Source: a virus
Strand: one strand, 5' to 3'
Virus record (IMG/VR): IMGVR_UViG_3300024262_003767
DNA length: 64,000 nucleotides
Shown: piece by piece, positions 10,276-52,164 of the stretch
Layout: each line of letters starts with the position of its first letter
How positions within the stretch are numbered: position 1 is the stretch's first letter
Notes under the pieces: generated by a model
What the model saw: only the letters and a program-made list of their open reading frames with translations
Told to the model about the DNA's origin: nothing
Database searches by the model: none
Translations under genes and position numbers: made by a program

Positions 10276-10515
10276 ATGAAAACAATGAAAACTATGCTAA
10301 TAATTTTAGCAATCCTAATGTTAGGAACAACACTTGGAACATCAACACCAAAAGTAAATGAATCTATTTTTGATTTTCCTGAAGAAGAATATATTGATGA
10401 TATTCCTTTTGATACAGATAAGGTAATTAACCAGGACACTTTTAAAATGGAAGAAGAAGGTTATATTGATGATATTCCATTTAATACAGAAAAAGTTGTA
10501 GAAGAATTATCATAA
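10276..10515 (+). CDS. small secreted protein with tandem acidic repeats
   Basis: Signal-like MKTMKTMLIILAILMLGTTLG; tandem repeat EEEYIDDIPFDTDKV / EEGYIDDIPFNTEKV; start moved to an internal Met after the PspC stop (track ORF begins 10219). Confidence 0.5.
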   Translation: MKTMKTMLIILAILMLGTTLGTSTPKVNESIFDFPEEEYIDDIPFDTDKVINQDTFKMEEEGYIDDIPFNTEKVVEELS

Positions 10516-11070: not shown

Positions 11071-11120
11071 AATTTTAATGCTTTTTCTTTTATATATAAA
11101 TAAAAATATTTTTTGTTTAA

Positions 11121-14500: not shown

Positions 14501-15514
14501 TTATAAATTTTTTAAATTATATTTTAAATACCAATCTATAAATTTCTTTATTCCAATTTTGTATGATGTTGAAGGTTTAAAATCTATTGCTTCTTCCAGT
14601 AATGTGGTGTCTGCACCAGCATATCGAATATTTGTTATGTTGTTTCCAACAAAATCTTTTTCTGACTCTTTATTTAAATTTTTTTCAATCTCTTTAATAA
14701 AATCCATAATATTAATTGGTTCAGAATTACCAATATTATAAATTTTACATAAACCTATACTATTATCCTTCATTAATAAATAAATGCTTTTTACAACATC
14801 ATCAATATAAGTAAAATCTCTATAAATTTTACCATCATTATAAATTGTTATTGGTTTATTATTTATTATTTTTTTAGTAAAAATATAAGCGGCACTATCT
14901 GGTCTACCCCAAGGACCATAAACACTAAATAATCTCATACCTATTGTTTTAATGTTATGTATATGGCTATATGTGTGAGCCATTAATTCGTTAGATTTTT
15001 TAGTTGATGCACACATAGATATTGGTAAATTGGTGTTGTCTGTTTCTTTTAATAATATTTTACTTCTATCTGCTGTTAATCCATATACTGAAGATGCGCT
15101 TGCATACATTATTTTATCTACACCATAATCTTTTGATATTTCTAAAACACTATTAAACCCATGAATATTAATATTAATAAATTTGCTTGGATATACTTCA
15201 CTTAATTTTATTCCCGTAAGAGCAGCAAGATGTATAACAATTTTTACATGAAATTCTGAAAATATTTCTCTTAACCTTTTTGTATCGTTAATTTCTACAT
15301 ACGAAAAATCAAAATTTGAATATTTTTTACTTGTTACTGCTCTACCAATTTCTATTGTATCTATTCCTAATTCTTTAAGTCTATCTAATTTAATAGTATT
15401 ACTATAACCTATTTCTTCAAGAAAATCAACGCCAATAACATCTTCACCTTGTTCAATTAAATATTTTGCCAAATTAAACCCTACAAATCCAGCAACACCA
15501 GTAATTAGTATCAT
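14501..15514 (-). CDS. NAD-dependent epimerase/dehydratase (extended SDR, UDP-sugar 4-epimerase-like)
   Basis: Rossmann ILITGVAGFVGFNLAKYL; YASASSVYG; FSVYGPWGRPD; start placed at Met MILITG (15514) rather than track start 15598. Confidence 0.8.
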   Translation of the reverse strand: MILITGVAGFVGFNLAKYLIEQGEDVIGVDFLEEIGYSNTIKLDRLKELGIDTIEIGRAVTSKKYSNFDFSYVEINDTKRLREIFSEFHVKIVIHLAALTGIKLSEVYPSKFININIHGFNSVLEISKDYGVDKIMYASASSVYGLTADRSKILLKETDNTNLPISMCASTKKSNELMAHTYSHIHNIKTIGMRLFSVYGPWGRPDSAAYIFTKKIINNKPITIYNDGKIYRDFTYIDDVVKSIYLLMKDNSIGLCKIYNIGNSEPINIMDFIKEIEKNLNKESEKDFVGNNITNIRYAGADTTLLEEAIDFKPSTSYKIGIKKFIDWYLKYNLKNL

Positions 15515-15604
15515 AATTTTTTGATGTTTTATTTTTATATATTGATTTTTTATAAATAAAAAATAATTTTTAATATATAGATAGAGAAAAAATAACAATT
15601 TCTA

Positions 15605-16657: not shown

Positions 16658-16986
16658 AATATTTAAAAGTTTACGAAGAACACACCAAAAAGTATATGCC
16701 TATCTGTATATGGATTGGAGAAGGTGAGGATAGTTGGGATAGTTATTTTTCTGATGATATTGAATTTGATTTTGATGAGGCTCAAACTCGGTTATCAACT
16801 ATGAGAAGCGATTGGGAAAAGAATCAACCTGATGTGTATGATCATTATAAATTATCATTTATGGTTATACCATATTACAAATATGTTGCTATTCAAGATA
16901 TCGAAAAAGGTAGTGAGATAATGGAGTTATTAAATGATAATGAAAGATTAAATTTATTGATACAGTCAAAAAAATATAATTTATGA
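16654..16986 (+). CDS. hypothetical acidic protein
   Basis: ATGA overlaps with flanking genes. Confidence 0.5.
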   Translation: MKYLKVYEEHTKKYMPICIWIGEGEDSWDSYFSDDIEFDFDEAQTRLSTMRSDWEKNQPDVYDHYKLSFMVIPYYKYVAIQDIEKGSEIMELLNDNERLNLLIQSKKYNL

Positions 16987-17408
16987 AAAAATTTGAAGAA
17001 TTTAAAATTAATGAATCTTCAACACTCAAATACTCTGTTGTTGGAAGATTTATGACTAATAATGTTAAAAAATGGTTTTTTTCTGAGAATGACAATTTTG
17101 CTGAACTTAATTATTGGAACAAGAATCCAGATTATGCTTTTGAATTTAAACTCAAAAATTTCGATAAAGATATAATATCAAGGGTTGAAAAAATGAGAGA
17201 TTTTTTTAACTTAAAAAGAGATTGGAAAATAGTAGCAATAACATCAAGTAGAGTAGGGTTTTATTTTCATATAAAATCTGATGATATGCCTATAATCTTA
17301 GAAAGATTAAAAGAAATAGATCCTGAAAATATTAAAACAATTGATAGTCTTTTAAAAGGTTTAGAACAACGAAAAATATTAAATACTGCTAATAAATATA
17401 ATTTATAA
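16983..17408 (+). CDS. hypothetical protein
   Basis: 141-aa ORF, translationally coupled. Confidence 0.5.
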   Translation: MKKFEEFKINESSTLKYSVVGRFMTNNVKKWFFSENDNFAELNYWNKNPDYAFEFKLKNFDKDIISRVEKMRDFFNLKRDWKIVAITSSRVGFYFHIKSDDMPIILERLKEIDPENIKTIDSLLKGLEQRKILNTANKYNL

Positions 17409-20790: not shown

Positions 20791-21897
20791 CTATTTACCA
20801 AATCTACTTTTTGTTGAATTGTAAATTTGTAAACTCTCATCTGATGTTAAATTTCTATCATATATCATCAATTTACCAATAGAACCATTGCCGAAAGTAA
20901 AACTTCCATATTGGTTGAATTGTATCTGAGTCCATGATGATAATGCAACATTTTTAAATTCTAACATATGCCATTCACCATCTCGGATATAATCATATAT
21001 GTTTGGTGTATCAACCGTGTCCATATAAAAATCAGGAGTACCACAATTACCATAATATTCTTTGTTAGATGAACTATATGCACCAAGGTAAAATGCTGTC
21101 GTTTGTGCACCTAAAAATAATGCCTGTGTGTCTGTTGTTTTTATCCAAAATATAACCGTACAAGTATTTGAGTTTGTTATTGTGTCTGTACAGGTTATAC
21201 CACCATCAGTTAAATTAAATATTTCTTCAAAACTGTCATGAACTATACCAGAACCGTCAAGAGAGAAAGATAAGTTTCTATTCACATCATACCAAGTAGT
21301 GTTGGTTCGTTGAGGTCCAGTAAAATTTGTCATATAAGATTTCTGTTCTATTTGTGGCGCATAAAAAGCATATTTATTTCCAGTTGAACCACCATAAGAA
21401 CTAATATACATTGAAGTCACATCTGTAGCAGGAGTTGTAAAAGTTTTAGATATTCTTATCCATCTATTTGAGGGCCAGGTGTTCCACGATGAACTTCCTT
21501 TATATTCTAAATATCCTTGATTTGTGTTGTGTGGTTGAGGTCTACAATACGGTGAACTTCCACCAATTATAGGTTCATTTTGCCAGAACCAAACAGATGC
21601 GGTATATTCTGTAGATGTTGTGACTGCGGCATTTCCACATCCCATATGGAGACTACCTGTTGTTGTAACTAGTTCAGATAATACACTATAACCTGGAAAA
21701 GGAGGATCAATAGTCAAATCGTTTGAACTCCAAGTAGCAGCACCAGAATTAACCCAACTAGATCTCCAACTTAATGAATTGTCAGATTGATATGATAGAT
21801 TAGTAGTAGATTCACCAGGAAATGAATTCAAATCTTTGGCATCTAAATTTATTAAAAGTCCATCTGTTACTATTTTTGGTCCTATTGATACTCCCAT
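20791..21897 (-). CDS. LamG/ConA-like lectin-domain protein, paralog A (putative structural/receptor-binding)
   Basis: N-terminal MGVSIGPKIVTDGLLINLDAKD shared with the upstream paralog; C-terminal LMIYDRNLTSDESLQIYNSTKSRFGK matches the LamG C-terminal motif (iYnraLs..Ei..ly). Confidence 0.6.
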   Translation of the reverse strand: MGVSIGPKIVTDGLLINLDAKDLNSFPGESTTNLSYQSDNSLSWRSSWVNSGAATWSSNDLTIDPPFPGYSVLSELVTTTGSLHMGCGNAAVTTSTEYTASVWFWQNEPIIGGSSPYCRPQPHNTNQGYLEYKGSSSWNTWPSNRWIRISKTFTTPATDVTSMYISSYGGSTGNKYAFYAPQIEQKSYMTNFTGPQRTNTTWYDVNRNLSFSLDGSGIVHDSFEEIFNLTDGGITCTDTITNSNTCTVIFWIKTTDTQALFLGAQTTAFYLGAYSSSNKEYYGNCGTPDFYMDTVDTPNIYDYIRDGEWHMLEFKNVALSSWTQIQFNQYGSFTFGNGSIGKLMIYDRNLTSDESLQIYNSTKSRFGK

Positions 21898-23243
21898 TAT
21901 TTACCAAATTTACTTTTTGTTGAATTATAATTTTGAATGGCTTCTGACTCTAAAATTGCTCTATTGTAATATTTAAAAATTGATATATATCCGTCAAAAT
22001 AAGATCCATATGATGCGTGAGCAGTTCCATACCCTTTACCAATACTACTAATAGTCACATTATTGGTTGTGAATGATGGAGAATACACTCCGATATATTC
22101 CCCATCAAAATAAAGAGTTTGTGCTCCATTAGTTGATGTTATTATCACATGGTGCCAGTTTAAATCGGCAACAACACCAGTATTAAAAACTCCCCAATAT
22201 TCTTCATTAATATCTCTTTCACCTCTAAATTGAAATGTATTTGAAACTATTGTATAATCAAGAAGTTGCATATAACCAGCAACACCATTCAATAATCGTA
22301 ATGCGTTATTAGTATTTGTTACATCTTGTGAAGTTAATGTGTTTCGTTTAACCCAAAATTCAACAGTACAAGAATTGAGATCTATTATTGTTGTGTTTAT
22401 ATCAACTTTATTGCCGCTTGTTACACCACCACTAAAATATATTTGTTTGTTACTATCATAGGACATATTTGTAATGTCTCCATTATTGTTACCTATTAAA
22501 TCCACCCAACCTTTTGTTGGTGATACACCCAATAAATCTCTAATATAAGGTTCTGAACCATCACACTTATCCATTCTTGGGTCATAAAATTGTAATTGAG
22601 TTGTACCATCAGTACAATAGTAATGATAAGTTCTATGATATGATGTTGTTGTTGATGGGTTCCACTTACAATCAACACCTATATTACAACCATTAATATC
22701 ACCAATTCTACCACTAGTTGAATACACACCCGTATCATTGTGTCTAGTTGTACCGTCATATGTATGGTAAAAACAATGTCCAACATATAAATACCATTGA
22801 TCTTTTATTAAAGATGATGTTGCTGAACAATTCCAATATGGATTACCACCTTCAGAACCATCTAATTTTACAACAGTAGGACCTAATCCAAAATAAAAAG
22901 TGCCACCACCAGAATCAGAAATTCGTTTTACCCAAATGGAAAATCTATAAGTATAATTAACATCTACACTATAAGATGATGTATTCCAACCACCATCTGC
23001 GTCACTAATTGTGTTTCCACTTGTCTTCCATACAACTGCCGATTCCCCCATAGGGTTTATATCTACAATTCTACTATTCTCACTAGTTGCACCATTTTGA
23101 CTAAATCCAGTCACACCACCTGTTCCAACAGTCCAATTATCCATATTAATATCAGAATGTCTAACATAAGATCTACTATTTGTTGCATCTAAACATAAAA
23201 CTAAACCGTCTGTTACTATTTTAGGACCAACAGTTACACCCAT
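21897..23243 (-). CDS. LamG/ConA-like lectin-domain protein, paralog B
   Basis: N-terminal MGVTVGPKIVTDGLVLCLDATNS; C-terminal YYNRAILESEAIQNYNSTKSKFGK; Gly/Thr/Ser/Asn-rich beta-sandwich-like composition. Confidence 0.6.
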   Translation of the reverse strand: MGVTVGPKIVTDGLVLCLDATNSRSYVRHSDINMDNWTVGTGGVTGFSQNGATSENSRIVDINPMGESAVVWKTSGNTISDADGGWNTSSYSVDVNYTYRFSIWVKRISDSGGGTFYFGLGPTVVKLDGSEGGNPYWNCSATSSLIKDQWYLYVGHCFYHTYDGTTRHNDTGVYSTSGRIGDINGCNIGVDCKWNPSTTTSYHRTYHYYCTDGTTQLQFYDPRMDKCDGSEPYIRDLLGVSPTKGWVDLIGNNNGDITNMSYDSNKQIYFSGGVTSGNKVDINTTIIDLNSCTVEFWVKRNTLTSQDVTNTNNALRLLNGVAGYMQLLDYTIVSNTFQFRGERDINEEYWGVFNTGVVADLNWHHVIITSTNGAQTLYFDGEYIGVYSPSFTTNNVTISSIGKGYGTAHASYGSYFDGYISIFKYYNRAILESEAIQNYNSTKSKFGK

Positions 23244-29529: not shown

Positions 29530-30435
29530 ATGAAAATAAAATTATTTGAAAATTTTGGGGGTGACACTATATTAGATAAACCTTTTGTTAAAAAAATAAG
29601 AGGTAAATATTTTTTACCAAATGTTGACTTTACCTGTTTTGATTTGAATTGTCTTAAAACCAGCAAAAAATTATCTACACTTAATTATTCATCACTTATT
29701 AGATTTTATTTATTTGTTTGGTTGTTAAAATATAATGGTACTGATGATTGGACTAATTATATTATTAGTGTTTTGAAAGATCCATCTAATCCAACATATG
29801 ATAAAGTGTGGAGAAATTTAAATCAGATGGGAAATAATAACGCAGTTCTCAAATATTTTAAATCTAAACTTGGGTTAAATATAAAAGATAATAAAGATGA
29901 TAATATTGATACTCTCACCAAAATGGATGAAATGAAAGATATGCTATTTAATGATATGAATTTTAGAGAAATAACATCTATTGTAAGTGATTTAACTAAA
30001 AAGGCAACAGAAAGTGAAACTAATGTTAAATTTTTCTTGAAAAGAATATGGGGTAAATATTATAAGATTAACGACCCTACTGATGCGGAAGATATAAAAG
30101 GTGTTGATTTATGGAGGTTGAATATTAAAACTGGTGATAGAGATAGATTACAAGTTAAAAATATTAGTGAAAGTGTAAGTGTTAATGTGTCTGGTGAAAC
30201 AATTGCGATTAAACCTTCAAGAATAGATCTAAGAGATTACTATTCAGGTACAGATACTTTAAAATTTGACTATTTAATTTTATATGATAAATTTAGAGAA
30301 AAATTGTGGGTTATAAATGGTAAAGCCATTTTCAAAATTAAGAAATATGATAGTATGGTTTTAATTATTTTGAAAAAATGGGATCCTAAATATAATCCTA
30401 TGAAAGAGTATGATATACCTAAAAGATTTACTTAA
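29530..30435 (+). CDS. hypothetical protein
   Basis: 301-aa ORF with upstream TTTTTTATATATATTAAAAAG motif. Confidence 0.55.
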
Positions 30436-31357
30436 TAGATTCTAAATAAGATTCATATGTCATTTTAATACCTTCTTCTAGAGAATATTTATGTTTCCAA
30501 CCTAAATTGTGTAATTTATCAACATTCAATAATTTTCTTGGTGTACCATCAGGTTTAGTTGTATCATATTTAATTTCACCTTCATAACCAATAACGTTTT
30601 TCATTATTTCAACTAATTCTGTAATCGACACATCTTCACCTGTTCCAATATTTACAATTTCACCATCTTCATATGTTTGCATCAAATAAAAACACGCATC
30701 AGCAACATCATCAACATATAAAAATTCACGTTTTGGTGTTCCTGTTCCCCACATTTCAATAAATGGTGTGTTGTTTATTTTAGCTTCATGAACTTTTCTA
30801 ATTAACGCAGGAAAAACGTGAGATGTTTCTAAATTATAATTATCATTTGGTCCATATAAATTTGTTGGCATCATTGAGATAAATTTAGTGCCATATTGAT
30901 TGTTATAACTTTGGCACATTTTAATTCCTGCAATTTTTGCAGTTGCATAAGCGTCATTAGTTGGTTCTAAGTAACCACTCATCAATTCAGATTCTTCTAT
31001 TGGTTGTTTTGCAAATTTTGGATAAATACAAGAACTACCTAAAAACAACAATTTTTTAACACCAAATACACAAGAATTATGAATTAAATTGTTTTGTATT
31101 TGTAAATTATCATAAATAAATTCTGCTGGATAATCTTTATTTGCCATTATACCACCAACTTTAGCCGCTGCGATAAAAACATAATCTGGTTTTTCTTCTT
31201 CAAAAAATTTTTGAGTATCGATTTGATTTTTTAAATCCAGTTGTGAATGTGTTCTAGTTATTATATTTTCATATCCTTCAGATTGTAATTTTCTAACAAT
31301 TGCACTTCCAACCATACCTCTATGACCTGCAACATAAATTTTATCATATTTATCCAT
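30428..31357 (-). CDS. fcl: GDP-L-fucose synthase (GDP-4-keto-6-deoxymannose 3,5-epimerase/4-reductase)
   Basis: Collinear with E. coli Fcl: [68 protein letters not shown]. Confidence 0.9.
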
Positions 31358-31366
31358 TTAATAATA

Positions 31367-31774
31367 TTATTTTTTTTGAAACTTTTTTATACGCTTAATA
31401 GTTTCTTTAAGATCTTCTTCATAATATAATATTAAAAAGTCAACATCCCTCTCATTAATATTATATCTTTTCATTAAATCATCTATCTCTTCTTTTTTAA
31501 ATTTAGATTTGATTTTTGTGGTTTTATTTATTTTAGTTTGCCAATACCAACCAGGTATATTTGTTGTACTACCAAATATTGCGAACCAAATATCTAATGA
31601 TGATGGTTTATTTATATTTTTATTATTAAAAAATTGTGCTTTTTTTATATCCTTATAGGCGAATTTGCGATTGAGAATAAAAAAATTTCTTTCTTTATCA
31701 TCATCAGTAATAAACCTATATTTATCTTTATCTTTGAAGATGATGTTTCCTAAACTTATAAAATCAATTGCCAT
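31367..31774 (-). CDS. hypothetical protein
   Basis: 135-aa ORF. Confidence 0.5.
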   Translation of the reverse strand: MAIDFISLGNIIFKDKDKYRFITDDDKERNFFILNRKFAYKDIKKAQFFNNKNINKPSSLDIWFAIFGSTTNIPGWYWQTKINKTTKIKSKFKKEEIDDLMKRYNINERDVDFLILYYEEDLKETIKRIKKFQKK

Positions 31775-33954
31775 TAATAAAATTGTTTAAATATTTTTGA
31801 GATTTTTTCTTTTGTTATTGGTTTTACAATTTGAAAATCTATATTCTTCTCTACCATATCTGTGGTAGATATTGTAATTATAGTTAACTCTTCATCTATT
31901 TGTTTTAATTTTTCTATGAAATCTAGTATATTAATATTTGATAAACTCATATCTATAAATATTGCATCAATATCACCTAATTTTTCTTCAAGTACATCAA
32001 GTGTTTCCTTTGATGATAGTGTCCATTTAATTTTAACATTCATAGATTTTAACATTATACCTAATAATGAATAGTTTTCAGGTATATCTTCTAATACTAT
32101 CACTTTAATATTAGAAAAATCATACACAATTTTATTAACTTGTTTTGTTTGAATATTTTGAACTTCTTGTAATGGAAGAGTAAAAAAGAATGTGCTTCCT
32201 TCTTTTTGAGTTGAATCTACCCATATATTTCCACCAAGTATATTAACTATACTTTTTGCGATAGATAATCCCAATCCTGTACCTTGGTATTGTTTTTTTG
32301 ATGATGCATCAACTTGCATAAATTTATCAAAAACTATTTCTAATTTATCTTCTGGAATACCAATACCAGTATCTTCAACAAAGAATGTTATAATATTGTC
32401 TTTTATTCTTGTACCAATTCTTATATGTCCACTTTCAGTAAATTTAATTGCATTACTAATCAAATTATATAATACCTGTTTTAATCTAAGAAAATCAGAC
32501 ACTATTATTTCATTATCTTCTCGTTTTTCGAAAGTTAATTTTACCGAATCTATATTCTTTCTAATATTTATATCTATAAAAATTTCTTCTAATTCTTCAA
32601 ATAAATCATTGATTGGGAATCGTTCATATAATAGTTCTAAATTTAATTCACCTGCTTCAATTTTAGCATAATCTAATATGTTATTTAATAATTCTTCTAA
32701 ATGTTTTGCATTAGCATTTATAGTTTTAAGAAATTTTTTATTATTGGTAGTATCAAACTTATCATCTAATAATATATCTGAAAAGCCTATAATCGAATTC
32801 ATTGGCGTTCTTATTTCGTGACTCATATTTGCCAAAAATAGTGACTTTAAAAGATCACTTTTTTCTGCTTCTATTTTTGATTTTTCTAATTCTATTTTAA
32901 TATTTTCTTGTTCTGTAATATCTTTACAATGAATTGCAATATACTCCGTTGAGCCATTATCATTTAAAATGGGATATATGTAATTTTCAAAATATTTATT
33001 ATTTATAACATCAATAAAATGTACTGGTTTGCCTGTAAATATTGCTTCAAGTGTTCTTTTTCTTTTGGGTTCTACACTCTCTTTAGGTAAAATCTGTGAT
33101 ATGTTCACTCCTACTAATTCTTCTCTTGTTTTATTAAAATATTTACAACCTCTATCATTTATTGCTAATAACTCACCTACTTTATTTGTTAAATAAGATG
33201 CACTTAATGTTGAATTTATAATATCTAAGTGTTGTCTCTCCTTTATTTTCATATCAGTAATATCTTGAAATATGGTAACAAAACGATGTGAGTTTTGTTT
33301 ATATGCATCAATTAAAAACCATTTCTGAAAAATATATGAATATTTTTCAAAATGTAAAGTCTTATTATCAGTAAATATTTGAGAATATATCCTTATCCAT
33401 TCACTCGAATCTTTATCTAATATTTCAGTTATATTTTTTCCAATAATTTCTGAATCTAAACCTGTGGTTTCGGTGAACGCTTTATTTATTCTAACAAATT
33501 TATAATCAATAGGTTTGCCACTATTATCAAATATCATTTCATGTAGAGAAAATGCTCGACTCATATTATCAATAATCTTTTCAAGTTCTTCACTTTTAAA
33601 AATATAATCTTTACTTATTTGAGATAAATGTTTTTCATCTTGATATACAACATGTACAAAATTTTCCTCACCTCGATAGATATAATTATATCTCCAACGA
33701 TTAAATTTATCGTCTTTATACTCTTTTAATTCGTGTGTCATACATTCTCCACTATCATACACTTTTAATATTTTATCATAAATACCAAAGTCGATTACTT
33801 TAGAAAAAACATCAACCAATTTTTTATCAATAACATCATATTCAATTCTTTCTACCGTATAAAAATTTTCTGATACTTCGTGAAAATATATATCTTCATC
33901 GATAATTTTATATGTGATAGAAACAAAATCAAAAATTTTTTCAAAATTTTTCAT
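31774..33954 (-). CDS. soluble hybrid sensor histidine kinase (PAS-like repeats + HisKA + HATPase + receiver)
   Basis: H-box SHEIRTPMNSIIGFSDIL; N-box NLISNAIKFT; G1 DTGIGI; G2 GTGLGLSI; C-terminal REC-like VIVLED...IFIDMSL...ITIS..KP; no N-terminal TM segment. Confidence 0.85.
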   Translation of the reverse strand: MKNFEKIFDFVSITYKIIDEDIYFHEVSENFYTVERIEYDVIDKKLVDVFSKVIDFGIYDKILKVYDSGECMTHELKEYKDDKFNRWRYNYIYRGEENFVHVVYQDEKHLSQISKDYIFKSEELEKIIDNMSRAFSLHEMIFDNSGKPIDYKFVRINKAFTETTGLDSEIIGKNITEILDKDSSEWIRIYSQIFTDNKTLHFEKYSYIFQKWFLIDAYKQNSHRFVTIFQDITDMKIKERQHLDIINSTLSASYLTNKVGELLAINDRGCKYFNKTREELVGVNISQILPKESVEPKRKRTLEAIFTGKPVHFIDVINNKYFENYIYPILNDNGSTEYIAIHCKDITEQENIKIELEKSKIEAEKSDLLKSLFLANMSHEIRTPMNSIIGFSDILLDDKFDTTNNKKFLKTINANAKHLEELLNNILDYAKIEAGELNLELLYERFPINDLFEELEEIFIDINIRKNIDSVKLTFEKREDNEIIVSDFLRLKQVLYNLISNAIKFTESGHIRIGTRIKDNIITFFVEDTGIGIPEDKLEIVFDKFMQVDASSKKQYQGTGLGLSIAKSIVNILGGNIWVDSTQKEGSTFFFTLPLQEVQNIQTKQVNKIVYDFSNIKVIVLEDIPENYSLLGIMLKSMNVKIKWTLSSKETLDVLEEKLGDIDAIFIDMSLSNINILDFIEKLKQIDEELTIITISTTDMVEKNIDFQIVKPITKEKISKIFKQFY

Positions 33955-33955: not shown

Positions 33956-34525
33956 TCATTTTAATTTTTTGAAACAAACTCTACATAAAGGTTTATAACT
34001 TTCATTACCACCAATTTCTATTTGTTCTCCTTCGGTAACTATAATATTATCTTTAAATCTACTATTTACAATGGCTTTTTTGTTTTTACATTCAGAACAT
34101 ATCGTTTTTATTTCTTCTATACTATCTGCCATCGTCATTAAATATTTTGAACCTTCAAATGGTTCCAATCTATAGTCTGATCTTAAACCATAACATATTA
34201 CAGGTATGTTTAATATATCGACAATATCTGACAATTGAAAAATGTGGTCTTTTGTTAAAAATTGTGATTCGTCCACTAAAATAGCCTTTATTTCATATGC
34301 CATTGGTTTAACATATTGGTATATATTTAATTTTTTATCTACAGGAATTGCAGGTTTACTTAAACCTACCCGAGACTTAACCACACCTTCTCCATACCTA
34401 GTATCTAAGGCTGATGTGAAGATTAAAATTTTTTCATTATTCTCTTCATAATTATATGAAACTTTCAGTAAATCAAGGCTTTTACCAGCACCCATGCTGG
34501 AATATCGGAAAAATAATTTTGCCAT
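33956..34525 (-). CDS. tdk: thymidine kinase (TK1 family)
   Basis: P-loop YSSMGAGKS; DESQF; C-terminal zinc ribbon CSEC...CRVC. Confidence 0.9.
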   Translation of the reverse strand: MAKLFFRYSSMGAGKSLDLLKVSYNYEENNEKILIFTSALDTRYGEGVVKSRVGLSKPAIPVDKKLNIYQYVKPMAYEIKAILVDESQFLTKDHIFQLSDIVDILNIPVICYGLRSDYRLEPFEGSKYLMTMADSIEEIKTICSECKNKKAIVNSRFKDNIIVTEGEQIEIGGNESYKPLCRVCFKKLK

Positions 34526-34663: not shown

Positions 34664-34876
34664 ATGGAAGATGTTAAAAAATCTAATGGTAATTTACCAT
34701 GGAAGCTTGTATGGGATGCTGAAACAAAAGAAGTTTTGTTTTGCAATAAAATTGATGGGGAATTTGAAACAATCAACGAACTCTTTGAGTCAAAAACGAA
34801 AGTTGATGTTTTTAGAAAAATAGATGAATTGGGACTCAAATATAACCCAAGTATTTTAGAAGAAGAATGGGTATAA
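34664..34876 (+). CDS. small hypothetical protein
   Basis: 70-aa ORF terminated by a bidirectional terminator. Confidence 0.4.
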   Translation: MEDVKKSNGNLPWKLVWDAETKEVLFCNKIDGEFETINELFESKTKVDVFRKIDELGLKYNPSILEEEWV

Positions 34877-34878: not shown

Positions 34879-34912
34879 TAAAAAAAGGGAGATGAAAGTC
34901 TCCCTTTTTTTT
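34879..34912. terminator. bidirectional rho-independent terminator between convergent genes
   Basis: A-run, gggagatgaaagtctccc, T-run. Confidence 0.7.
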
Positions 34913-42205: not shown

Positions 42206-44050
42206 TTAAGTTGCTCTTATTTGCTCTGCTGGTGAACTTGTTACAGAACTTCGTGATTTCGTGTAAATTATTAACGTTTTACCTGCTTTTGGTTGCCATC
42301 CAGTATTTCCAATATTTACTGGTTTAATATTTGATGTATTAGATGAACTTAATGAACCATCATCCGTTATAGTTATACCATCTTCAACAAATCTAACATC
42401 TTCATAAAATGTGAACGTACCTGAGTATAATAATGTTTTTAATTTGTTGGCTTCTAACGCTATATAAAAATTATTATATCCCTTATCATATATTTTCTTT
42501 AGTACATTTAAATCATTTTCAGCAATTTTAAAATTAACTATACCTAATGTGAAATTATTTGTAGATTCTTTAAAAATTGATTTTTCAATTGATTCTGAAT
42601 CAGATTTAAATATTAATTTAACATCTGAACCTTTTGTTAATTCTGATAAATTAAAAGGTTGTAAACTTTTATTATTTATTAATTTTCCAAGTTTAAATTG
42701 AATCACATTATCAAACGGGGTTATAATTATGTTCAATAACCCCATACCTTTATAATTTTGTGGTTGTGAACTCTTTGGACTATTTACAATAACTTTACCA
42801 ACATCTATTAGAAGAGGATAAGGTATTTTTCTAATTTCAGTCACAAGAGGCTTAGTGCTAAAATCCCTATTAAGTTGAATTTGCTCTGGTTTAGCATTGT
42901 ATATCTTTAAATTATTAATATTTCCAACATCAAGAGAAATTAATCTTTTACCATATTTATGAATACTATCCCTAATTCCAAGTGTTGTAAATCTCACAAT
43001 TTGTGACATATCAACCAAATCAACAACTCTCATTGTAACTTTAATGGCAGCGGTTGTATTAGAGAATGTCATAATTGGTCTATAATATAATTTCTTTGTG
43101 AATATAGCTAAACCTAATGTTGGATCTTCTTCAACAGAAAATGTTTGTTTTGACGTTTGAATATTTTCTTCATAAAGATATACATCATATTCAAATTTTA
43201 CTCGTCTACCTTTTGTATATACATCTTCAATAAATTCGTTAAGATTCTCATTTGATTCACCATAAGTGCCATATATTTCAAAAAAATCACCTTCAGTAGA
43301 TTCTTCGACTTTAACTGCAAGAGTTTGATATTCAGGTGTTTGTGGTATAGACATTCTATACTCATTTGTGGCATAATAGTAATTCACCCCTAATATCGTA
43401 TCTTTACTAGTTAAAAATCTAAAATCTAAGAATATAGGTGCAGTTTGACTTAATCCTTCATGACTTGTTGTTAAATTATAATTTATAGTATTAGGTATTA
43501 CACTATTTGTGTTATCACTTAAAACTCGTTGATTAGATACGTAATTTATAGAAGGCACCTCAAATTCAAAATATTTACCCCATTCAATTTCATCATATAT
43601 GAATGGTATTGCCAAATTCAATAATGTTGAACCACTACGAGCATCTGTATTATCATAGAAAATGTTACTTAGATTATATGTTTTTGTATTATCAAATCCA
43701 TAAGCGAATGTTTTTAAATAAAATCCAACATAACCTTCTGTTTCAAAATTGTAATTTGTTGGTAAATAAACTCTTACCCTATCATATTGTATTGGTGCTG
43801 AACTATAATCTTGTTCTTGTAGATAATTATAACTATTATCAAATACGGTATATTTTCTTAAAACTGGATCGATTTGAAATAAGTTTCTACTTTTACTATT
43901 TAAAAGTGATGTTGAAAGGAAATTTTTCGTATTGTTTTCGTTAATATTTGTTATTATCTGATAATTCTCTGATATAAAATTATTACTATCAAATCCCCAC
44001 TCAATTAATACTTTTGGGTTTATTTTTATATACTTAGAAACAGTCGCCAT
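42206..44050 (-). CDS. large hypothetical protein (possibly virion structural)
   Basis: 614 aa, N/S/T/Y-rich; no catalytic motif seen. Confidence 0.5.
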   Translation of the reverse strand: MATVSKYIKINPKVLIEWGFDSNNFISENYQIITNINENNTKNFLSTSLLNSKSRNLFQIDPVLRKYTVFDNSYNYLQEQDYSSAPIQYDRVRVYLPTNYNFETEGYVGFYLKTFAYGFDNTKTYNLSNIFYDNTDARSGSTLLNLAIPFIYDEIEWGKYFEFEVPSINYVSNQRVLSDNTNSVIPNTINYNLTTSHEGLSQTAPIFLDFRFLTSKDTILGVNYYYATNEYRMSIPQTPEYQTLAVKVEESTEGDFFEIYGTYGESNENLNEFIEDVYTKGRRVKFEYDVYLYEENIQTSKQTFSVEEDPTLGLAIFTKKLYYRPIMTFSNTTAAIKVTMRVVDLVDMSQIVRFTTLGIRDSIHKYGKRLISLDVGNINNLKIYNAKPEQIQLNRDFSTKPLVTEIRKIPYPLLIDVGKVIVNSPKSSQPQNYKGMGLLNIIITPFDNVIQFKLGKLINNKSLQPFNLSELTKGSDVKLIFKSDSESIEKSIFKESTNNFTLGIVNFKIAENDLNVLKKIYDKGYNNFYIALEANKLKTLLYSGTFTFYEDVRFVEDGITITDDGSLSSSNTSNIKPVNIGNTGWQPKAGKTLIIYTKSRSSVTSSPAEQIRAT

Positions 44051-46955: not shown

Positions 46956-49472
46956 TTAGGCTTCTAAAAGTGGAGTTTCATCTTTTGGTGGTAATTCTTT
47001 ACTATTCAAATTAACAATAGTAATCTCACCATCTTTACTTCTAAGTGAAACTTTATCACCAATTTTAATTTCACCATTGAGAATAGCATCTGTTAGAGTA
47101 TCTTCAATGTGTCGTTGAATTGCTCTTTTCAATGGTCTTGCACCATATTCAGCATCCCATCCTTCTTCAAATAAGAAGTCTTTAAGTGACTTTGTGATAT
47201 TTACAACATAACCAATATCTTTAAGTCTATCGAGAGTTGTTTTAATTTCAAGGTCAATAATTCTGAAAATGTTGTCTTTTGAAAGAGCGTTGAACATTAT
47301 AAGTTCATCAACTCTATTAAGAAATTCTGGTGCAAATTTCTTTTTCAATTCTTTATCAATAACAGCGTTCTTCTTATCTTGAATGTTTTTGTTGGTGGCA
47401 TTTGTTTGAAATCCCATACCTGTACCAAAATCTTTAAGTTGTCTTGAACCTGTATTCGATGTCATTATGATAATTGCGTTTTTAAAATTAACTCTTCTAC
47501 CATAACTATCAGTAAGAATTCCATCATCAAGAACTTGTAGAAGTATATTAAATACGTCTGGATGCGCTTTTTCCATTTCATCAAGAAGAACAATTGAATA
47601 TGGTTTTCTTCTGATGGCTTCAGTTAATTCACCACCATCATCATAACCAACATATCCTGGAGGCGCTCCAATCAATTTTGAAACTGAATGTTTTTCCATA
47701 TATTCAGACATATCAATTCTAATGAGGTTTTCTTCTGAACCAAAGAGTTCTTTTGCTAGAACCTTTGCTAAGTAAGTTTTACCGACACCTGTAGCACCTA
47801 AGAACATAAATGTTCCGACAGGTTTTTTAGGATCTTTGATACCAATTCTACTACGTTTGATTGAACGAACAATTTTATCAACAGCATCATCTTGTCCAAT
47901 AACAATATTTTTCATTTTAGTTCCAAGATTTCTCAATTTGTTTGATTCATCATCATCAACAGCATCAAGTGGGATTTTGGTCATCATTGAAACAACTTCA
48001 GCAATATCTTCTTTTCCAACGATTTCACGATTTTCGTCCAATTTTTCGTTCCATTCCTCTTTCAATTTTTTCAATTGTTCTGTAAGGTTTCTTTCTTTAT
48101 CTCTCCAAGAAGCAGCTTTTTCAAATTTCTGTTCGTCAACACATTCAGTTTTCTTTTTCTCGGCTTCTGAAATTTTACTTTCAAGAATAGAAATAGCTTT
48201 AGGTTGATTTGAATTTGAATCTACATGAACTTTGGCACCAGCTTCATCCAAAGCGTCAATTGCTTTATCTGGCATAAATCTATCATTCATATATTTATCA
48301 GTCAATTTTACACAAGCTTCAATTGCTTCATCTGTGTACACGACTTTGTGATAATCCTCATATCTAACTTTGAGTTGTTTAAGGATTTCAATAGTTTCTT
48401 CAATGGTAGTAGGTTCTACCACAACTTTTTGAAATCTTCTTTCTAATGCACCATCTTTTTCAATATGTTTTCTATATTCTTCGAGAGTAGTTGCACCAAT
48501 ACATTGGAATGTTCCTCTTGCTAATGCTGGTTTTAACATATTAGATGCATCAAGTGAACCTTGTGCGCTACCAGCACCAATAATTGTATGAATTTCATCA
48601 ATAAAAAGTATAATGTTTGATGTTTCTTCAATTTCTTTGATAATTCCTCTTAAACGAGATTCAAATTCGCCACGATATTTTGTTCCTGCAACAAGGGCAC
48701 CCATATTAAGGGTGAAAATTCTTTTATCTTTAATGTTGTTTGGCACTTTACCATCAACAATTCGTTGTGCTAAACCTTCAACAATTGCAGATTTGCCAAC
48801 TCCAGGCTCACCTATAAGAATAGGATTATTTTTCTTTCTACGTGAAAGAATTTGACTTATTCTTTTAATCTCAATTTTTCTACCAACAACTGGATCGAGA
48901 GAACCTTCTTTTGCTTTTTTGGTAATATCTTCACCAAATTGTTCAATAAGTTTAGGTTTCTTATTTTTATTTGATGCTGTTGTATCACTATGATGCATTT
49001 CTGGATCATCCCAATCTGCACTATTACTTATTCCAGTAACTTTTTCGTGTAATTTTTTAATTATCTCACCTTCATCAATTTTTGAAAACATATCATTTAA
49101 AATATTATTTTTAGTATTTAAGAGTGAAAGTAATACTACATCAGTATCAACATATTTGACATCCATTTCATCAATTATTCCAACACAATTTTCAAGTATG
49201 TCCGTAACTTCTTGTGATAATTGTACTTTATCTTTTCTCTCTGCCAATTGAATATGCTCCATTTGGTTTCTCATTACCAAAGCATCTTGAATAGTTTTTT
49301 TGATTGTTGGAATACGAATATCAATTTCTTGAAGAACTTGATAAGCACGATAATTTTCATCCTCAATTAGAGCCAAAAACAAGTGTTCTGGTTCAATTTC
49401 AGATGATTTATATTGCAACGCAATCGTCTTACTATTCTTAATCACATTATCTACGTCTTTGTTAAAGTTCAT
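46956..49472 (-). CDS. clpB: ClpB/ClpC-family AAA+ chaperone (two nucleotide-binding domains)
   Basis: N-terminal Clp-N repeats; NBD1 GEPGVGKS + LFIDEIH; NBD2 [10 protein letters not shown] + [14 protein letters not shown]; sensor GARPLKR. Confidence 0.9.
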
Positions 49473-49777: not shown

Positions 49778-50080
49778 TTAATCTTTCTCAATCGTGAGTG
49801 TTAATCCTTGTTCTTCAAGTGCGGATTTAAAAGGTTTTAATTTATCTTTTGAACCAGTTTTTAAGATACTCGCACCTTTCATATGAACTGTCCAAGCTGT
49901 GTTTTCAGCTTTTTCTGGACTAAAACTCATAATTGATATCAGACATAAAATTACATGATCAAAAGAATTGACTTCATCATTCCATAAAATCAATTTATAG
50001 ACTTTATCATCCGATGGTTCAATACCCGCTTTACTGAGTATTTCTTCTAATGTTTTTGTTATTTCTTTTGTGTCGCTCAT
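49778..50080 (-). CDS. clpS: ATP-dependent Clp protease adaptor ClpS
   Basis: YKLILWNDEVNSFDHVI...AENTAWTVHMKGAS, typical ClpS core. Confidence 0.85.
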   Translation of the reverse strand: MSDTKEITKTLEEILSKAGIEPSDDKVYKLILWNDEVNSFDHVILCLISIMSFSPEKAENTAWTVHMKGASILKTGSKDKLKPFKSALEEQGLTLTIEKD

Positions 50081-51375
50081 ATTCCTAATTCCTCTTTATA
50101 TAGTTTAACAGTATTAAAGTTTCCAGTATATTTTCCTTCACTATCAGACAACTTTACACAATCTCTCCAAACTTTCATTCCTTCAGGTAAGGCTTCAGAC
50201 ATCTTAATTACCATATTTAAAGGTTTTGCCTTTTTTAAAGTTTCCATAAAATAACCACCATTTGGATTTGGTATCGATTCCCAATTAAATTGGTTATGAT
50301 AATCTTCATCATAGATACCATTTTGTGAAACCAAAACAACATCGTTTGATAGCCAAGTACCTATACCATAGGAAGATAATATTTTATTTCTCACACAATT
50401 TTCAATTGTTTTAATTTTTTCTATACTATTTATAGAGTCAGAAAATACAATTGTTTTTGGAATCATACCATTAGGCATTTTAATACCTTTATTTATGTAA
50501 TGTTTGATAGTTTTTTCTGCGAATTCAACAGGTTCACCAGAATCTTGACGAACACCGTCAAATAATTTTGAATAAAATAAATCAAAACCTTCAAAGAAAA
50601 TATCTGTTGTATATGTATCAGAAAGTGCAATTCCTAATGCTCCTTTATAAGCATCTACCCAACGACCCATTCCTACACGATTAGCCATCATCACACCGTA
50701 TTTAGCAGCGTGAAACATAAACCATTCGTGTGCCTGAGTTCCAATTGCTTTAATACCATATTTACGAGCAAACATCACATTGGATGTACCAACGATTGTT
50801 TTTGGTGCAACTTTCAAAAATTCTTCAATAACTCTACCTTGGATAAATTTTGAAAATCTTCTGCGGGTTCCAAATTCAGATAATGAAATTCCAAGTTCAG
50901 ATAATTGTTTAAATTTTTCATCCCAAATTTCCATTGACTTTTCTAAGTCAACTTCTTCACCTGAGAAAAGGAAGAATAATTCTGATATTAAAGCCATTAA
51001 TTGAACTTCCCAAAATATAGTTTTGTGCCAAAAACCTTCAATTTCTATTTCTAATACACCATTTTTTTGAGTAACTTTAACTTCATTAGGATCATATTGA
51101 TAACTCCTAAGATACATATAATAGGAAATATCAAAGAATGGAAGTTTACTTTTCAAATGTTCTTCAATTTCTTTGGTAAATTTTAAATTTTTGAAATGAG
51201 CAATCTGTTCTTTTAACTCGGTAGCAAAACCTTTTGGAAATTTACGGGTTTTATCTCTGAGTATGAACTTATACTTAACCTTAGCGTTAGGATAGTGTTT
51301 TAGTATGGCAAATTGCATGAAATACTTATAGGCGTCCTGATCATCAAATTCGGTAATTATTGGTTTAAATCTCAT
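50077..51375 (-). CDS. pncB: nicotinate phosphoribosyltransferase
   Basis: Collinear with E. coli PncB: DAYKYFMQ, FWEVQLMALISE, FGTRRRFS, GTSN, GTQAHEW. Confidence 0.9.
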   Translation of the reverse strand: MRFKPIITEFDDQDAYKYFMQFAILKHYPNAKVKYKFILRDKTRKFPKGFATELKEQIAHFKNLKFTKEIEEHLKSKLPFFDISYYMYLRSYQYDPNEVKVTQKNGVLEIEIEGFWHKTIFWEVQLMALISELFFLFSGEEVDLEKSMEIWDEKFKQLSELGISLSEFGTRRRFSKFIQGRVIEEFLKVAPKTIVGTSNVMFARKYGIKAIGTQAHEWFMFHAAKYGVMMANRVGMGRWVDAYKGALGIALSDTYTTDIFFEGFDLFYSKLFDGVRQDSGEPVEFAEKTIKHYINKGIKMPNGMIPKTIVFSDSINSIEKIKTIENCVRNKILSSYGIGTWLSNDVVLVSQNGIYDEDYHNQFNWESIPNPNGGYFMETLKKAKPLNMVIKMSEALPEGMKVWRDCVKLSDSEGKYTGNFNTVKLYKEELGI

Positions 51376-51376
51376 A

Positions 51377-52078
51377 TTATAAAAATTTTCCTATTGTTTC
51401 TGATTCAATTTCAATATCTTTTACTGAATTAATAACAAGTATATTATAATCGATTACTAACATTTCAATATATTTATCTAATTCTTCTTCTGTTCCTAAC
51501 CCTTTTGTTGCGGCAAGATTTAAGATAACTTGAAATCCAGCATTGGACAAATCCTTTAAAGTTTCACCTACACAGTAATTAAGTGCTAATCCACCAACAA
51601 TAATTGTTGTTATATTGTGATAATTATAAAATTCAATCAACCCAGTCGAAATTTTACCTTCTTGATCGTGATAAACACTTGTGTAAGGGTGTAGGTGTGG
51701 ATCGACTCCCTTATTTACAATAAAGTTAAAATCTTCAATTTTACCAAGTTCATCAAGAATTTCCGAACCAAATGTTCCTGATTCACAATGCAAATTCCAA
51801 AACATATCAACATTTTTGTGTCCAACTATAGGTGTGAATTGAGGATTTTCTTCAGTTGCTACCCATAACGCATTTTTTGAGTGCATATCTCTTGATATGG
51901 TTTTAACAATTCCTATTAAATTTTGTTTTGCTAATTCTTTACCAATTAGGTGTCCATCAGGTACAGGTAGTTCATTAGGACAGAGTGGAGTAAATCCCTT
52001 TTGAGGGTCAACGTTGTGACTTGCTGTTCTTTCGCTAATCACTCTAATCTTATTCGTATTTTCAAAACTTATATTCAT
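51377..52078 (-). CDS. pncA: nicotinamidase/pyrazinamidase (isochorismatase family)
   Basis: DPQKGF, K, and catalytic Cys in IIVGGLALNYCVGETL. Confidence 0.85.
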   Translation of the reverse strand: MNISFENTNKIRVISERTASHNVDPQKGFTPLCPNELPVPDGHLIGKELAKQNLIGIVKTISRDMHSKNALWVATEENPQFTPIVGHKNVDMFWNLHCESGTFGSEILDELGKIEDFNFIVNKGVDPHLHPYTSVYHDQEGKISTGLIEFYNYHNITTIIVGGLALNYCVGETLKDLSNAGFQVILNLAATKGLGTEEELDKYIEMLVIDYNILVINSVKDIEIESETIGKFL

Positions 52079-52164
52079 AATATTTTATTTATTTTTATGT
52101 TACAAAAGTAATACTTTTTTTAATAATAAAAAAATTGTATTGTTAAAGAATAACAATACAATTT

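Follow-up and report, generated by a model that had tools for sequence, protein, structure and literature searches.

Our analysis revealed that the gene under study encodes a soluble, cytoplasmic hybrid histidine kinase (HK) of a huge, Mahaphage-like phage. Comparison of coding sequences indicates that its kinase core is under purifying selection and that its function is maintained. The kinase, which we take to be active, is likely to sense the intracellular state of the infected cell and to signal to a receiver protein outside its own polypeptide, of host or phage origin, with its own C-terminal receiver acting as a modulator. The window referred to throughout is the whole 64-kb stretch of DNA that was analysed; it is part of a 70-kb contig, and the complete genome probably measures several hundred kb. 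The features of the gene and its surroundings are collected in Table 1.

Table 1. Coordinates of the kinase gene, its domains and other features of the window.
Feature	Position	Strand	Description and evidence
Hybrid histidine kinase (HK) gene	31774..33954	(-)	ATG-to-TAA ORF, 726 aa; PAS-PAS-PAS-DHp-CA-REC; Pfam and AlphaFold2 (AF2)
PAS-A, aa 1-105	33640..33954	(-)	PAS fold in AF2; without Pfam match; swapped in some orthologues
PAS-B, aa 134-231	33262..33555	(-)	Weak PAS_8 match; pLDDT ~95, PAS topology
PAS-C, aa 252-345	32920..33201	(-)	PAS_9 1.6e-13; PAS_4 2.7e-8; AF2
DHp/HisKA helical hairpin, aa 347-433	32656..32916	(-)	HisKA 1e-20; dN/dS 0.07
CA/HATPase_c domain, aa 444-594	32173..32625	(-)	N, G1, F and G2 boxes; dN/dS 0.15
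C-terminal receiver, aa 617-725	31780..32106	(-)	E622-D623, D668 (nt 31951-31953), S696, K711; helix alpha4 deleted
Thymidine kinase (TK), first gene of putative operon	33956..34525	(-)	PF00265 6.6e-46; stop 1 nt before HK start
Conserved 135-aa ORF (ORF135)	31367..31774	(-)	Overlaps HK stop (TAATG); 64-76% identity among orthologues
GDP-L-fucose-synthase-like epimerase/reductase, last gene of putative operon	30428..31357	(-)	PF01370 2.8e-66; syntenic in all clade loci
Bidirectional terminator-like hairpin, closes upstream unit	34880..34911	(.)	14-pair stem, T tracts on both sides
NAD-linked cREC (PF20274)	52165-52569		Only other receiver-superfamily protein in the window; 18 kb from HK

Domain architecture and catalytic core of the kinase

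The start codon of the HK gene is backed by orthologues that open with the same MK(N/E)F..FDF motif. In the Pfam search, in which all domains listed here exceeded their gathering cut-offs, HisKA (PF00512) was found at aa 370-435 with an E-value of 1e-20 (73.9 bits versus a cut-off of 26.9), HATPase_c at aa 487-596 (E = 7e-31, 107 bits), PAS_9/PAS_4 at aa 254-350 and Response_reg at aa 618-717, the last with just 34.1 bits versus a cut-off of 30.2. The AlphaFold2 model of the protein reached a mean pLDDT of 83.9, and its DHp and CA domains superimpose on HK853 with a TM score of 0.89 and an rmsd of ~2.1 Å. The phospho-accepting histidine H379, located in the motif SHEIRTP (codon at nt 32818-32820), is invariant across 58 aligned homologues, as are the N box (N497/N501), the G1 box (D528-G530-G532), F545 and the G2 box (G558-G560-G562). 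An H-box histidine combined with a Bergerat-fold CA domain carrying N, G1, F and G2 boxes places the protein, on sequence, in the HisKA class (class I). No transmembrane segment was found in the HK, the maximum 19-residue Kyte-Doolittle mean being 1.32. Thus, the soluble hybrid HK with H, N, G1 and G2 boxes and a REC domain proposed in the initial annotation was borne out by domain annotation, by these residues and by the lack of a transmembrane segment.

The selection analysis gave dN/dS values of 0.25 for the whole HK, 0.07 for DHp and 0.15 for CA, which are rough because the NG86 method was applied to an AT-rich genome and to short domains.

The sensory part of the protein had been described as about 330 aa of tandem PAS-like sequence. 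Its PAS nature was confirmed, but the AlphaFold2 model resolves three PAS folds rather than two, each with a five-stranded antiparallel sheet and flanking helices. The top Foldseek matches of PAS-A were exclusively PAS/LOV structures (TM 0.6-0.7); its LOV fold matches share only 11-16% identity with it, and no LOV-type cysteine motif (GXNCRFLQ) is visible in the HK sequence. PAS-B contains several invariant residues, including W186, Y218 and Q220. The N-terminal sensor modules have been exchanged between phage lineages while the kinase core stayed unchanged: identity of PAS-A to the corresponding region of the homologues P0008-P0012 is below 25%, and P0009 carries a REC domain in that place.

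Two functional identities considered for the protein were discarded. Hybrid kinases of the Bacteroides HTCS type are single polypeptides in which an HK and a receiver are joined to a DNA-binding domain of the AraC type, and their sensor is periplasmic. The Pfam search found no HTH_AraC or other DNA-binding domain in the HK, and with neither such a domain nor a transmembrane segment the protein was not assigned to this type. A role in a defence system was dropped as well, since the PADLOC defence-system models gave no match for the HK or for seven neighbouring or related ORFs.

Derived receiver domain and candidate partners

Residues E622-D623, D668, S696 and K711-P712 of the C-terminal receiver align with D12/D13, D57, T87 and K109 of CheY, and the attached domain accordingly has the acidic pair, acceptor aspartate, Thr/Ser and lysine of a hybrid HK receiver. 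The receiver announced in the initial annotation is therefore present with its phospho-chemistry residues, but it proved to be atypical. In the AlphaFold2 model the (beta-alpha)5 fold is incomplete, with beta4 (691-696) running straight into beta5 (707-710), and the spacing between the Thr/Ser and the lysine is 15 residues versus 22 in canonical receivers. This deletion of alpha4 occurs in 21/21 sampled members of the phage-only clade to which the HK belongs, and canonical spacing was found in 36/36 sequences outside it. In complexes of receivers with HPt proteins, the loop between beta4 and alpha4 normally contributes to the surface that binds the HPt. With a dN/dS of ~0.5, the domain is also less constrained than the kinase core. 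Its residues D668, S696 and K711 are kept in 19-21 of the 21 clade members, so that the domain may still accept phosphate; D668 is retained in 19 and replaced by N in P0009 and by E in P0012, and in P0011 the receiver is deleted and its remnant fused to the next ORF. A pseudo-receiver (PsR), in the description given in PMC12632262, is recognised as a receiver but lacks key phosphotransfer residues. The HK receiver is not a PsR because D623, D668, S696 and K711 are kept, whereas the orthologues P0009 and P0012 would fit this definition. The best reading of the domain is that of an accessory and derived module which is not an obligatory relay step.

Profile searches for partners, conducted with local REC and HPt profiles that were sensitive on positive controls, found no further Response_reg in the 64-kb window and no HPt in the HK, the window, the clade loci or the complete 735-kb genome of the phage LR756501. 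The initial remark that no response regulator (RR) or HPt lies near the gene thus holds for the whole window. The same HPt profile did find HPt domains in 43 bacterial and 3 viral loci, and the loci of Bacteroidota homologues contained an HPt in 0/10 cases versus 43/80 loci overall. No terminal RR with an output domain was found in the window, and two relatives possess single-domain receivers only: locus L007 has a stand-alone Response_reg 5 kb from the HK, and LR756501 encodes one HK and exactly one stand-alone Response_reg. The designation of the kinase as an orphan is consequently valid only within the 64-kb fragment. The two stand-alone receivers were rejected as orthologues of each other (28% identity, E = 0.04). 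Because they are non-orthologous and the LR756501 kinase was acquired independently, the pairings of HK and receiver in these relatives may be coincidental. An external partner receiver for the HK is plausible, and a phage HPt or RR could be encoded outside the 64-kb fragment. The cREC protein of the window, which sits in a cREC-isochorismatase-NAPRTase cluster, was not adopted as the cognate receiver in view of this NAD-salvage setting and of the report that cREC is associated with NAD+/ADPr enzymes and never occurs in HK systems (PMC7824862).

A classical phosphorelay that hijacks the host, passing phosphate from H379 to D668, further to an HPt of the host or an unseen one of the phage and finally to a host RR with reprogramming of host transcription, is an unlikely mode of action. 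Its support is the full set of phospho-chemistry residues in the receiver, including the D668 kept in most of the clade, and the fact that the best partial NCBIfam matches are the relay kinases TorS, LuxQ, ArcB and BarA. The HK nevertheless scored below every curated cut-off of the equivalogs TorS, LuxQ, ArcB, BarA, RcsC and EvgS, with best scores of 278.8 versus 676.5 for TorS, 255 versus 1200 for LuxQ and 221.6 versus 838 for ArcB. The HPt searches found nothing in the window, the loci of the clade, the complete 735-kb genome or the ten loci of Bacteroidota homologues. Moreover, some lineages can dispense with the receiver. Since it is devoid of alpha4, weakly constrained and lost or mutated in some orthologues, a His-Asp-His-Asp relay through this domain is doubtful.

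Still less probable is a protein with little net kinase output that serves chiefly as a phosphatase or a sink for phosphate, draining phosphoryl groups from host RRs or relays so that host signalling in stress or defence is silenced. Bifunctionality is common in kinases of the HisKA class, and the motif with E/T at positions +1/+4 has been implicated in phosphatase activity. This motif is conserved in the HK (H-E-I-R-T-P from H379 onwards), an attached receiver can act as a sink, and no output partner was found nearby. On the other hand, a pure phosphatase has no need of an ATP site that is invariant and evolves under the low dN/dS of the CA domain, and the supposed sink has been lost in some clade members.

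Phage origin and genomic setting of the kinase gene

The window originates from a huge, Mahaphage-like phage, as it contains clade-restricted genes common to curated genomes >460 kb. The 614-aa ORFan at 42206-44050 matches solely six curated uncultured huge phages (LR756500-4, LR745206; 462-735 kb), a ClpB-like gene is ~60% identical to those of 634-642 kb phages, and 42 of the 124 stop-to-stop ORFs of the window (~34 real genes) have a match in LR756501. No capsid, terminase or portal genes were found in the 64-kb window, which shows a weak Laminin_G_3 'virion structural protein' match at 21897-23243; a capsid gene (Gp23) and DNA polymerase B occur on contigs of the relatives. The host is probably a member of the Bacteroidota, and genomes >634 kb have been predicted to replicate in Bacteroidetes (PMC7162821).

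The HK falls within a phage-only clade that was monophyletic in 100/100 NJ bootstraps (21 sampled members). The gene order TK-HK-ORF135-epimerase is kept at 43-78% identity in six loci (L001, L006, L007, L008, L139 and L156), and TK directly adjoins HK in the first five of them. In a comparison with 185,579 species, no cellular genome came closer than ~30% identity across the full-length protein, and identity across the core did not exceed ~45%. No near-identical DNA was found in the phage collection; in IMG/VR, a single-protein scan found nothing and an alignment-based scan yielded matches. These comparisons support the HK as a long-resident, apparently vertically inherited phage gene rather than host contamination. 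A single ancient HK common to all huge phages was rejected, having been recovered in 0/100 bootstraps, and the 634-642 kb genomes gave no HK matches.

The initial view of a phage-encoded kinase is supported, and neither host DNA nor a degenerate pseudokinase is indicated, given the genes common to 462-735 kb huge phages, the syntenic phage-only clade, the presence of both H379 and D668 and the purifying selection on the core. Host contamination is a frequent source of two-component genes in 'phage' databases, many of the HK matches are bacterial contigs labelled as phage, and constraint on the receiver looks relaxed, but a recently captured or mis-assembled piece of host DNA, or a decaying pseudokinase without phage function, is effectively refuted by a GC content (23.9%) that fits the window (26.9%), by the embedding of the gene in an overlapping putative operon, by synteny that persists between phage contigs at identities as low as 43%, by the distance from every cellular genome searched, and by invariant catalytic residues with a core dN/dS of 0.07-0.15.

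No terminator was found on the minus strand from TK to the epimerase. Promoter scans were uninformative, with 55 sigma-70 sites versus 52.9 expected and 136 occurrences of the Bacteroidota -7 motif TAnnTTTG versus 127 expected. The location of the HK in a putative operon with TK and a GDP-fucose-pathway enzyme suggests its expression together with phage metabolic take-over genes. ORF135 had no family match in the domain and defence-model searches. It was rejected as an HPt or partner of the kinase: it has no conserved histidine, the copy in the window is without any histidine, and matches to the HPt profile were sub-threshold and confined to two orthologues (E = 0.18 and 2). In LR756501 the ORF135 homologue neighbours that of the epimerase, at a great distance from the HK; because it travels with the epimerase there, ORF135 is considered to belong with that gene and not with the HK.

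Proposed mode of action and comparison with known systems

Returning to the favoured reading of a cytoplasmic sensor of the intracellular state, the protein is predicted to be a dimeric HisKA-class kinase whose three tandem PAS domains would read one or more intracellular cues, such as a metabolite, redox or energy state. A coiled-coil linker (aa 347-396) would transmit the signal to the DHp domain, where the CA domain, presumed to be active as a kinase, would phosphorylate H379. The phosphoryl group may then be given to, or taken from, a separate receiver protein, either a host RR or a single-domain receiver from another part of the phage genome. The alpha4-less receiver with D668 would modulate the kinase intramolecularly or act as a sink for phosphate, and would not be an obligatory step to an HPt. 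The likely purpose of such a pathway would be to tie phage or host gene expression, or the timing of infection, to host physiology.

A more far-reaching version, which we put forward only tentatively, assigns to the whole clade the role of an autonomous infection-state sensor evolved by phages. The exchanged N-terminal PAS modules would tune sensing, the DHp-CA core would directly phosphorylate or dephosphorylate a specific host RR or phage single-domain receiver and thereby govern how a long infection is timed or in which mode it runs, and the alpha4-less receiver would be vestigial or autoinhibitory and in the process of being lost. If this were true, the kinase would represent a two-component input layer owned by the virus instead of a pathway borrowed from the host.

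Whether lytic phages monitor the physiological state of their host cell, and by what means, is under active study. The arbitrium system and phage VqmA are examples of phage sensing through other receptor types, and no mention of such kinases was found in the papers on huge and jumbo phages that were searched. The existence of a phage-only lineage of PAS-containing HKs in the largest known phages suggests that these viruses employ a two-component-type sensor of their own during infection. The lineage also amounts to a natural experiment on the remodelling of a hybrid kinase captured by a virus, with sensor modules swapped and a receiver degenerating, and it offers proteins assayable for autophosphorylation, ligands and phosphotransfer partners.

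Virus-encoded HKs have precedents. The agr locus of the Clostridioides difficile phage phiCDHM1 contains an HK of the AgrC type (PMC3901668), and hybrid HKs of the Ectocarpus virus EsV-1 appear as Delaroque et al. 2000 in the reference list of PMC6163359. By their descriptions both are set apart from the phage HK, AgrC being membrane-bound, peptide-sensing and without PAS or receiver domains, and EsV-1 having a eukaryotic host. In jumbo phages the receiver superfamily is also represented by cREC; the receiver of the HK itself is a Response_reg (PF00072) and not a cREC.

Closer in kind are the kinases of LR756501 (735 kb) and of the 640-678 kb contigs carrying P0027 and P0028, which are likewise soluble PAS hybrid kinases encoded singly in Mahaphage-type genomes. 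They differ from the HK in sharing 31-34% identity with it, in occupying another locus and in having canonical receivers (88 bits, spacing 22), and P0027 and P0028 carry an extra N-terminal REC. Their placement among bacterial sequences in the tree implies independent acquisitions.

Among cellular kinases, Caulobacter ShkA (6qrj) was found in both the sequence and the fold matches of the phage HK. ShkA combines a pseudo-receiver with a receiver, responds to c-di-GMP and relays its signal by way of a dedicated HPt, whereas the phage HK possesses three PAS domains but lacks a pseudo-receiver, and no HPt was detected for it. The two are alike in being soluble hybrid kinases, and the regulatory role proposed here for the phage receiver has its counterpart in the account of ShkA as a cytosolic hybrid kinase that becomes active when its receiver domain is liberated (10.1101/675454). 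The Bacteroidota PAS-HisKA-HATPase_c-REC kinases resemble the phage HK in domain order, in the presence of all catalytic boxes and in loci without HPt, and the best cellular matches include Flavivirga, Lutibacter and Bacteroidales/Tenuifilaceae MAGs. From these kinases the phage HK clade is distinguished by its long, 100%-supported branch, its alpha4-less receiver and its location in a putative phage operon with thymidine kinase.

Domain architecture and catalytic residues

The product of the kinase gene, whose coordinates proved exact, is assigned by every criterion of sequence and predicted fold to the HisKA-class hybrid histidine kinases, and all of its Pfam matches exceed the gathering scores (see table). 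The H-box (SHEIRTP, with H379), N-box (N497, N501), G1 (D528-G530-G532), F-box (F545) and G2 (G558-G560-G562) showed no variation among 58 aligned homologues, and no transmembrane segment was found, the top hydropathy mean over 19 residues being 1.32. The initial annotation is thus borne out in its H, N, G1 and G2 boxes, its C-terminal REC-like domain and its lack of a transmembrane segment; the phospho-accepting His and Asp, whose possible loss it had raised, are both retained (H379 and D668). Its tandem PAS-like sensing region stood as to PAS identity and was refined to three modules by AlphaFold2, Pfam and fold matches. The AlphaFold2 model, with an input alignment of 58 sequences, was confident (mean pLDDT 83.9), and its DHp-CA core (HisKA hairpin with H379, and HATPase_c domain) superposed on Thermotoga HK853 with TM 0.89 at about 2.1 A. 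The first PAS module, for which no Pfam match was obtained, reached pLDDT 81 when modelled alone, and its fold matched PAS/LOV structures only (TM 0.6-0.7).

Domains of the kinase (aa) and genes and signals of the window (nt)
Feature	Position	Strand	Remark
Kinase gene	31774-33954	-	726 aa, ATG to TAA
PAS-topology modules	aa 1-105, 134-231, 252-345		AlphaFold2 model
PAS_9/PAS_4	aa 254-350		Pfam
DHp hairpin	aa 347-433		AlphaFold2 model
HisKA	aa 370-435		Pfam, E = 1e-20
CA domain	aa 444-594		AlphaFold2 model
HATPase_c	aa 487-596		Pfam, E = 7e-31
Receiver	aa 617-725		AlphaFold2 model
Response_reg	aa 618-717		Pfam, 34.1 bits vs cut-off 30.2
RNA 2'-phosphotransferase Tpt1/KptA	8676-9188	-
2H/Acb1-like phosphoesterase	10510-11160	-	Acb1 E = 5e-5, short of Pfam cut-off
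GDP-mannose 4,6-dehydratase	14501-15598	-
GDP-L-fucose-synthase-like epimerase	30428-31357	-
ORF135	31367-31774	-	135 aa
70-aa ORF	34664-34876	+
Terminator-like hairpin	34880-34911
ORFan	42206-44050		614 aa
ClpB/ClpC-type chaperone	46956-49472	-	838 aa
NAPRTase	50077-51375	-	NAD cluster 50077-52569
Isochorismatase/nicotinamidase-like gene	51377-52078	-	NAD cluster
cREC (PF20274)	52165-52569	-	NAD cluster
SbcC-like gene	58112-61279	-	within 58112-62848
HNH homing-endonuclease ORF	61267-62148	-	between SbcC-like and SbcD-like genes
SbcD-like Metallophos gene	62192-62848	-	within 58112-62848

Phage residence of the kinase and identity of the window

The exact kinase protein has a database record, derived from a 70-kb contig, and its full-length orthologues (53-78% identity) and shorter one-PAS forms (41-48%) lie on metagenome contigs in every case. 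The gene order thymidine kinase - histidine kinase - ~135-aa ORF - epimerase is kept in every contig examined, as are flanking S1, NusG, radical-SAM, PolyA_pol, RNaseH-like and Metallophos genes in most of them. In a neighbour-joining tree on the DHp, CA and REC region the orthologues form one clade (bootstrap 100/100) on a long branch. Among 185,579 species-representative genomes no cellular relative exceeded 30% full-length identity (nearest: Flavivirga jejuensis), the nearest identity over the kinase core alone being about 45%, and Bacteroidota were prominent among the top matches. The GC content of the gene (23.9%) matches that of the window (26.9%); the gene starts 1 nt past the thymidine kinase stop, its own stop overlaps the next start (TAATG), and a strong hairpin precedes the thymidine kinase gene, no terminator being found within the four-gene unit. 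Synteny, clade, distant cellular matches, GC match, tight packing and terminator layout thus exclude recent capture as well as the contaminating host DNA that the initial annotation had considered.

Between the hairpin and the thymidine kinase gene, the opposite strand carries a 70-aa ORF whose position and size are kept in five related loci (L001, L002, L006, L007, L139). ORF135 is conserved above the kinase (64-76% identity across orthologues; 38% to LR756501 704024-704419), adjoins the epimerase in every case and has no Pfam, PHROG or PADLOC match. It was rejected as a partner of the kinase because it lacks a conserved His and its copy in LR756501, a complete 735-kb Mahaphage-type genome, accompanies the epimerase.

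No capsid, terminase or portal gene was found in the window, and its huge-phage assignment therefore rests on shared gene content. No tRNAs were found in it; it is a mix of ORFans, homing endonucleases (HNH, endonuclease I/NUMOD3) and auxiliary genes (ClpB-like ATPase, NAPRTase-isochorismatase-cREC cluster, Tpt1, Acb1/2H-like phosphoesterase, GDP-mannose dehydratase, GDP-fucose-synthase-like epimerase, thymidine kinase, CCA/poly(A) polymerase, S1, NusG, S30AE, SbcCD, SPFH). Homologues of 42 of the 124 stop-to-stop ORFs (~34 real genes) are dispersed around LR756501 at 25-65% identity, and in the entire phage collection the 614-aa ORFan matched six records only, each of them an uncultured huge phage with a genome of 462-735 kb. 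The ClpB-like protein is ~60% identical to that of 634-642 kb phage genomes and just 38% to the LR756501 copy; it is a full-length double-AAA+ chaperone with Clp_N and UVR motifs. These relatives belong to the Mahaphage clade and were curated by Al-Shayeb et al. (PMC7162821), and replication of the genomes above 634 kb is predicted in Bacteroidetes (PMC7162821).

The dehydratase and epimerase genes, 15 kb apart, suggest phage-encoded GDP-fucose synthesis, possibly used in altering host surface or virion glycans. The SbcC-like and SbcD-like genes both match one LR756501 ORF (278528-282133), which raises the possibility of an SbcCD fusion that the HNH endonuclease split or invaded. The neighbouring Tpt1/KptA and 2H/Acb1-like genes (8676-11160) may have an RNA-repair or anti-CBASS function.

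Selection, module exchange and the atypical receiver

Rough NG86 estimates of dN/dS against a 78%-identical orthologue were 0.25 for the whole gene, 0.07 for the DHp, 0.15 for the CA domain, 0.25-0.35 for the PAS domains and about 0.5 for the receiver. The N-terminal module is swapped among lineages: PAS-A in the window kinase and its closest relatives, unrelated sequence in the orthologues P0008 and P0010, a receiver in P0009, PocR plus PAS in P0011, and nothing at all in the 490-500-aa forms.

The window receiver keeps E622-D623, D668, S696 and K711-P712 and is not a pseudo-receiver by the residue-based definition in PMC12632262. Helix alpha4 is missing from the modelled domain because beta4 continues almost directly to beta5. 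From T/S to K, all 21 clade members have a spacing of 14-17 residues; the 36 aligned sequences from outside the clade, other huge-phage kinases included, have exactly 22 without exception. An exhaustive receiver-only search of 1.84 billion representatives returned four matches at E <= 1e-10, each from the kinase clade; among the best 147 matches the spacing was 22 in 115 and <=18 in just five unrelated proteins. D668 is replaced by N in P0009 and by E in P0012. P0011 captures domain loss under way: its receiver is deleted, and at this variant's locus L155 (2501-3082 (+)) the beta5-alpha5 remnant 'YVDFLVVKPVIRDKVSEILKIF' is joined in frame to the conserved small ORF downstream. The receiver is therefore partly dispensable and the kinase core is not.

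Partners, output and known systems

The REC profile and the HPt profile (from 48 bacterial HPt domains), both built locally, detected, respectively, stand-alone receivers at E = 5e-20 and HPt domains in 43/80 bacterial and 3 viral loci. Apart from the kinase's own receiver, neither matched in the 64-kb window, as the initial annotation had stated of cognate regulators or HPt nearby, or in clade loci except L007. This locus encodes a canonical single-domain Response_reg of 118 aa, 5 kb from the kinase (16822-17178 (+), full canonical residue set). LR756501 holds one histidine kinase, zero HPt and one stand-alone Response_reg with complete canonical residues (350284-350658 (-), equal to L147 7284-7658). 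This receiver gene follows the ClpB-like gene at a distance of ~2 kb, as part of an array of genes on one strand, a cation-efflux gene among them. Since the LR756501 kinase was acquired independently of the clade kinase and the two receivers are not orthologous (28% identity), their recurrence in kinase-bearing relatives may be convergence or chance. HPt was found at 0/10 Bacteroidota loci with homologous hybrid kinases, so that the phage, in lacking one, resembles its likely host phylum rather than standing apart. The window also holds cREC, a NAD-linked receiver-like domain never associated with histidine kinases according to Iyer et al. (PMC7824862). Its three-gene cluster fits the NAD-linked context known from jumbo phages (PMC7824862), and the LR756501 homologue (51160-51558, 54% identity) lies only ~13 kb from the kinase of that genome.

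As to activity, signal, target and role, we infer that the protein is probably an active cytoplasmic sensor kinase acting on a separate receiver protein. The dimeric enzyme would read an intracellular cue by its three PAS domains, autophosphorylate at H379, and phosphorylate or dephosphorylate a response regulator of the host or a single-domain receiver encoded by the phage, and the alpha4-less receiver might serve as an intramolecular modulator or sink. A classical relay, from the retained D668 to an HPt of a host whose likely phylum yielded none at the sampled loci, is unlikely. That the protein, with its invariant catalytic boxes, works mainly as a phosphatase or sink is more doubtful still. 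The reading as a passenger or contaminant gene is effectively refuted by its conserved phage context.

The kinase scored below the cut-off for each of the named equivalogs TorS, LuxQ, ArcB and BarA, and it differs from Bacteroides HTCS because both a DNA-binding domain and a transmembrane segment are absent; no membership in a known defence system was found. Virus-encoded precedents are the histidine kinase of the phiCDHM1 agr locus (PMC3901668) and the hybrid kinases of EsV-1, cited in PMC6163359, and further viral histidine kinases occur in several PHROG families and ~50 IMG/VR loci. Hybrid kinase relatives (27-35% identity) on the GVMAG giant-virus contigs L111, L116, L119, L128 and L130 (IMG/VR) indicate that histidine kinases also recur in large eukaryotic-virus bins. 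Such kinases go unmentioned in the searched huge/jumbo-phage literature, the coverage of which was limited, so that an earlier description may exist. What appears to be new is a syntenic clade, confined to phages and under purifying selection, whose sensor modules have been swapped and whose alpha4-less receiver is degenerating.
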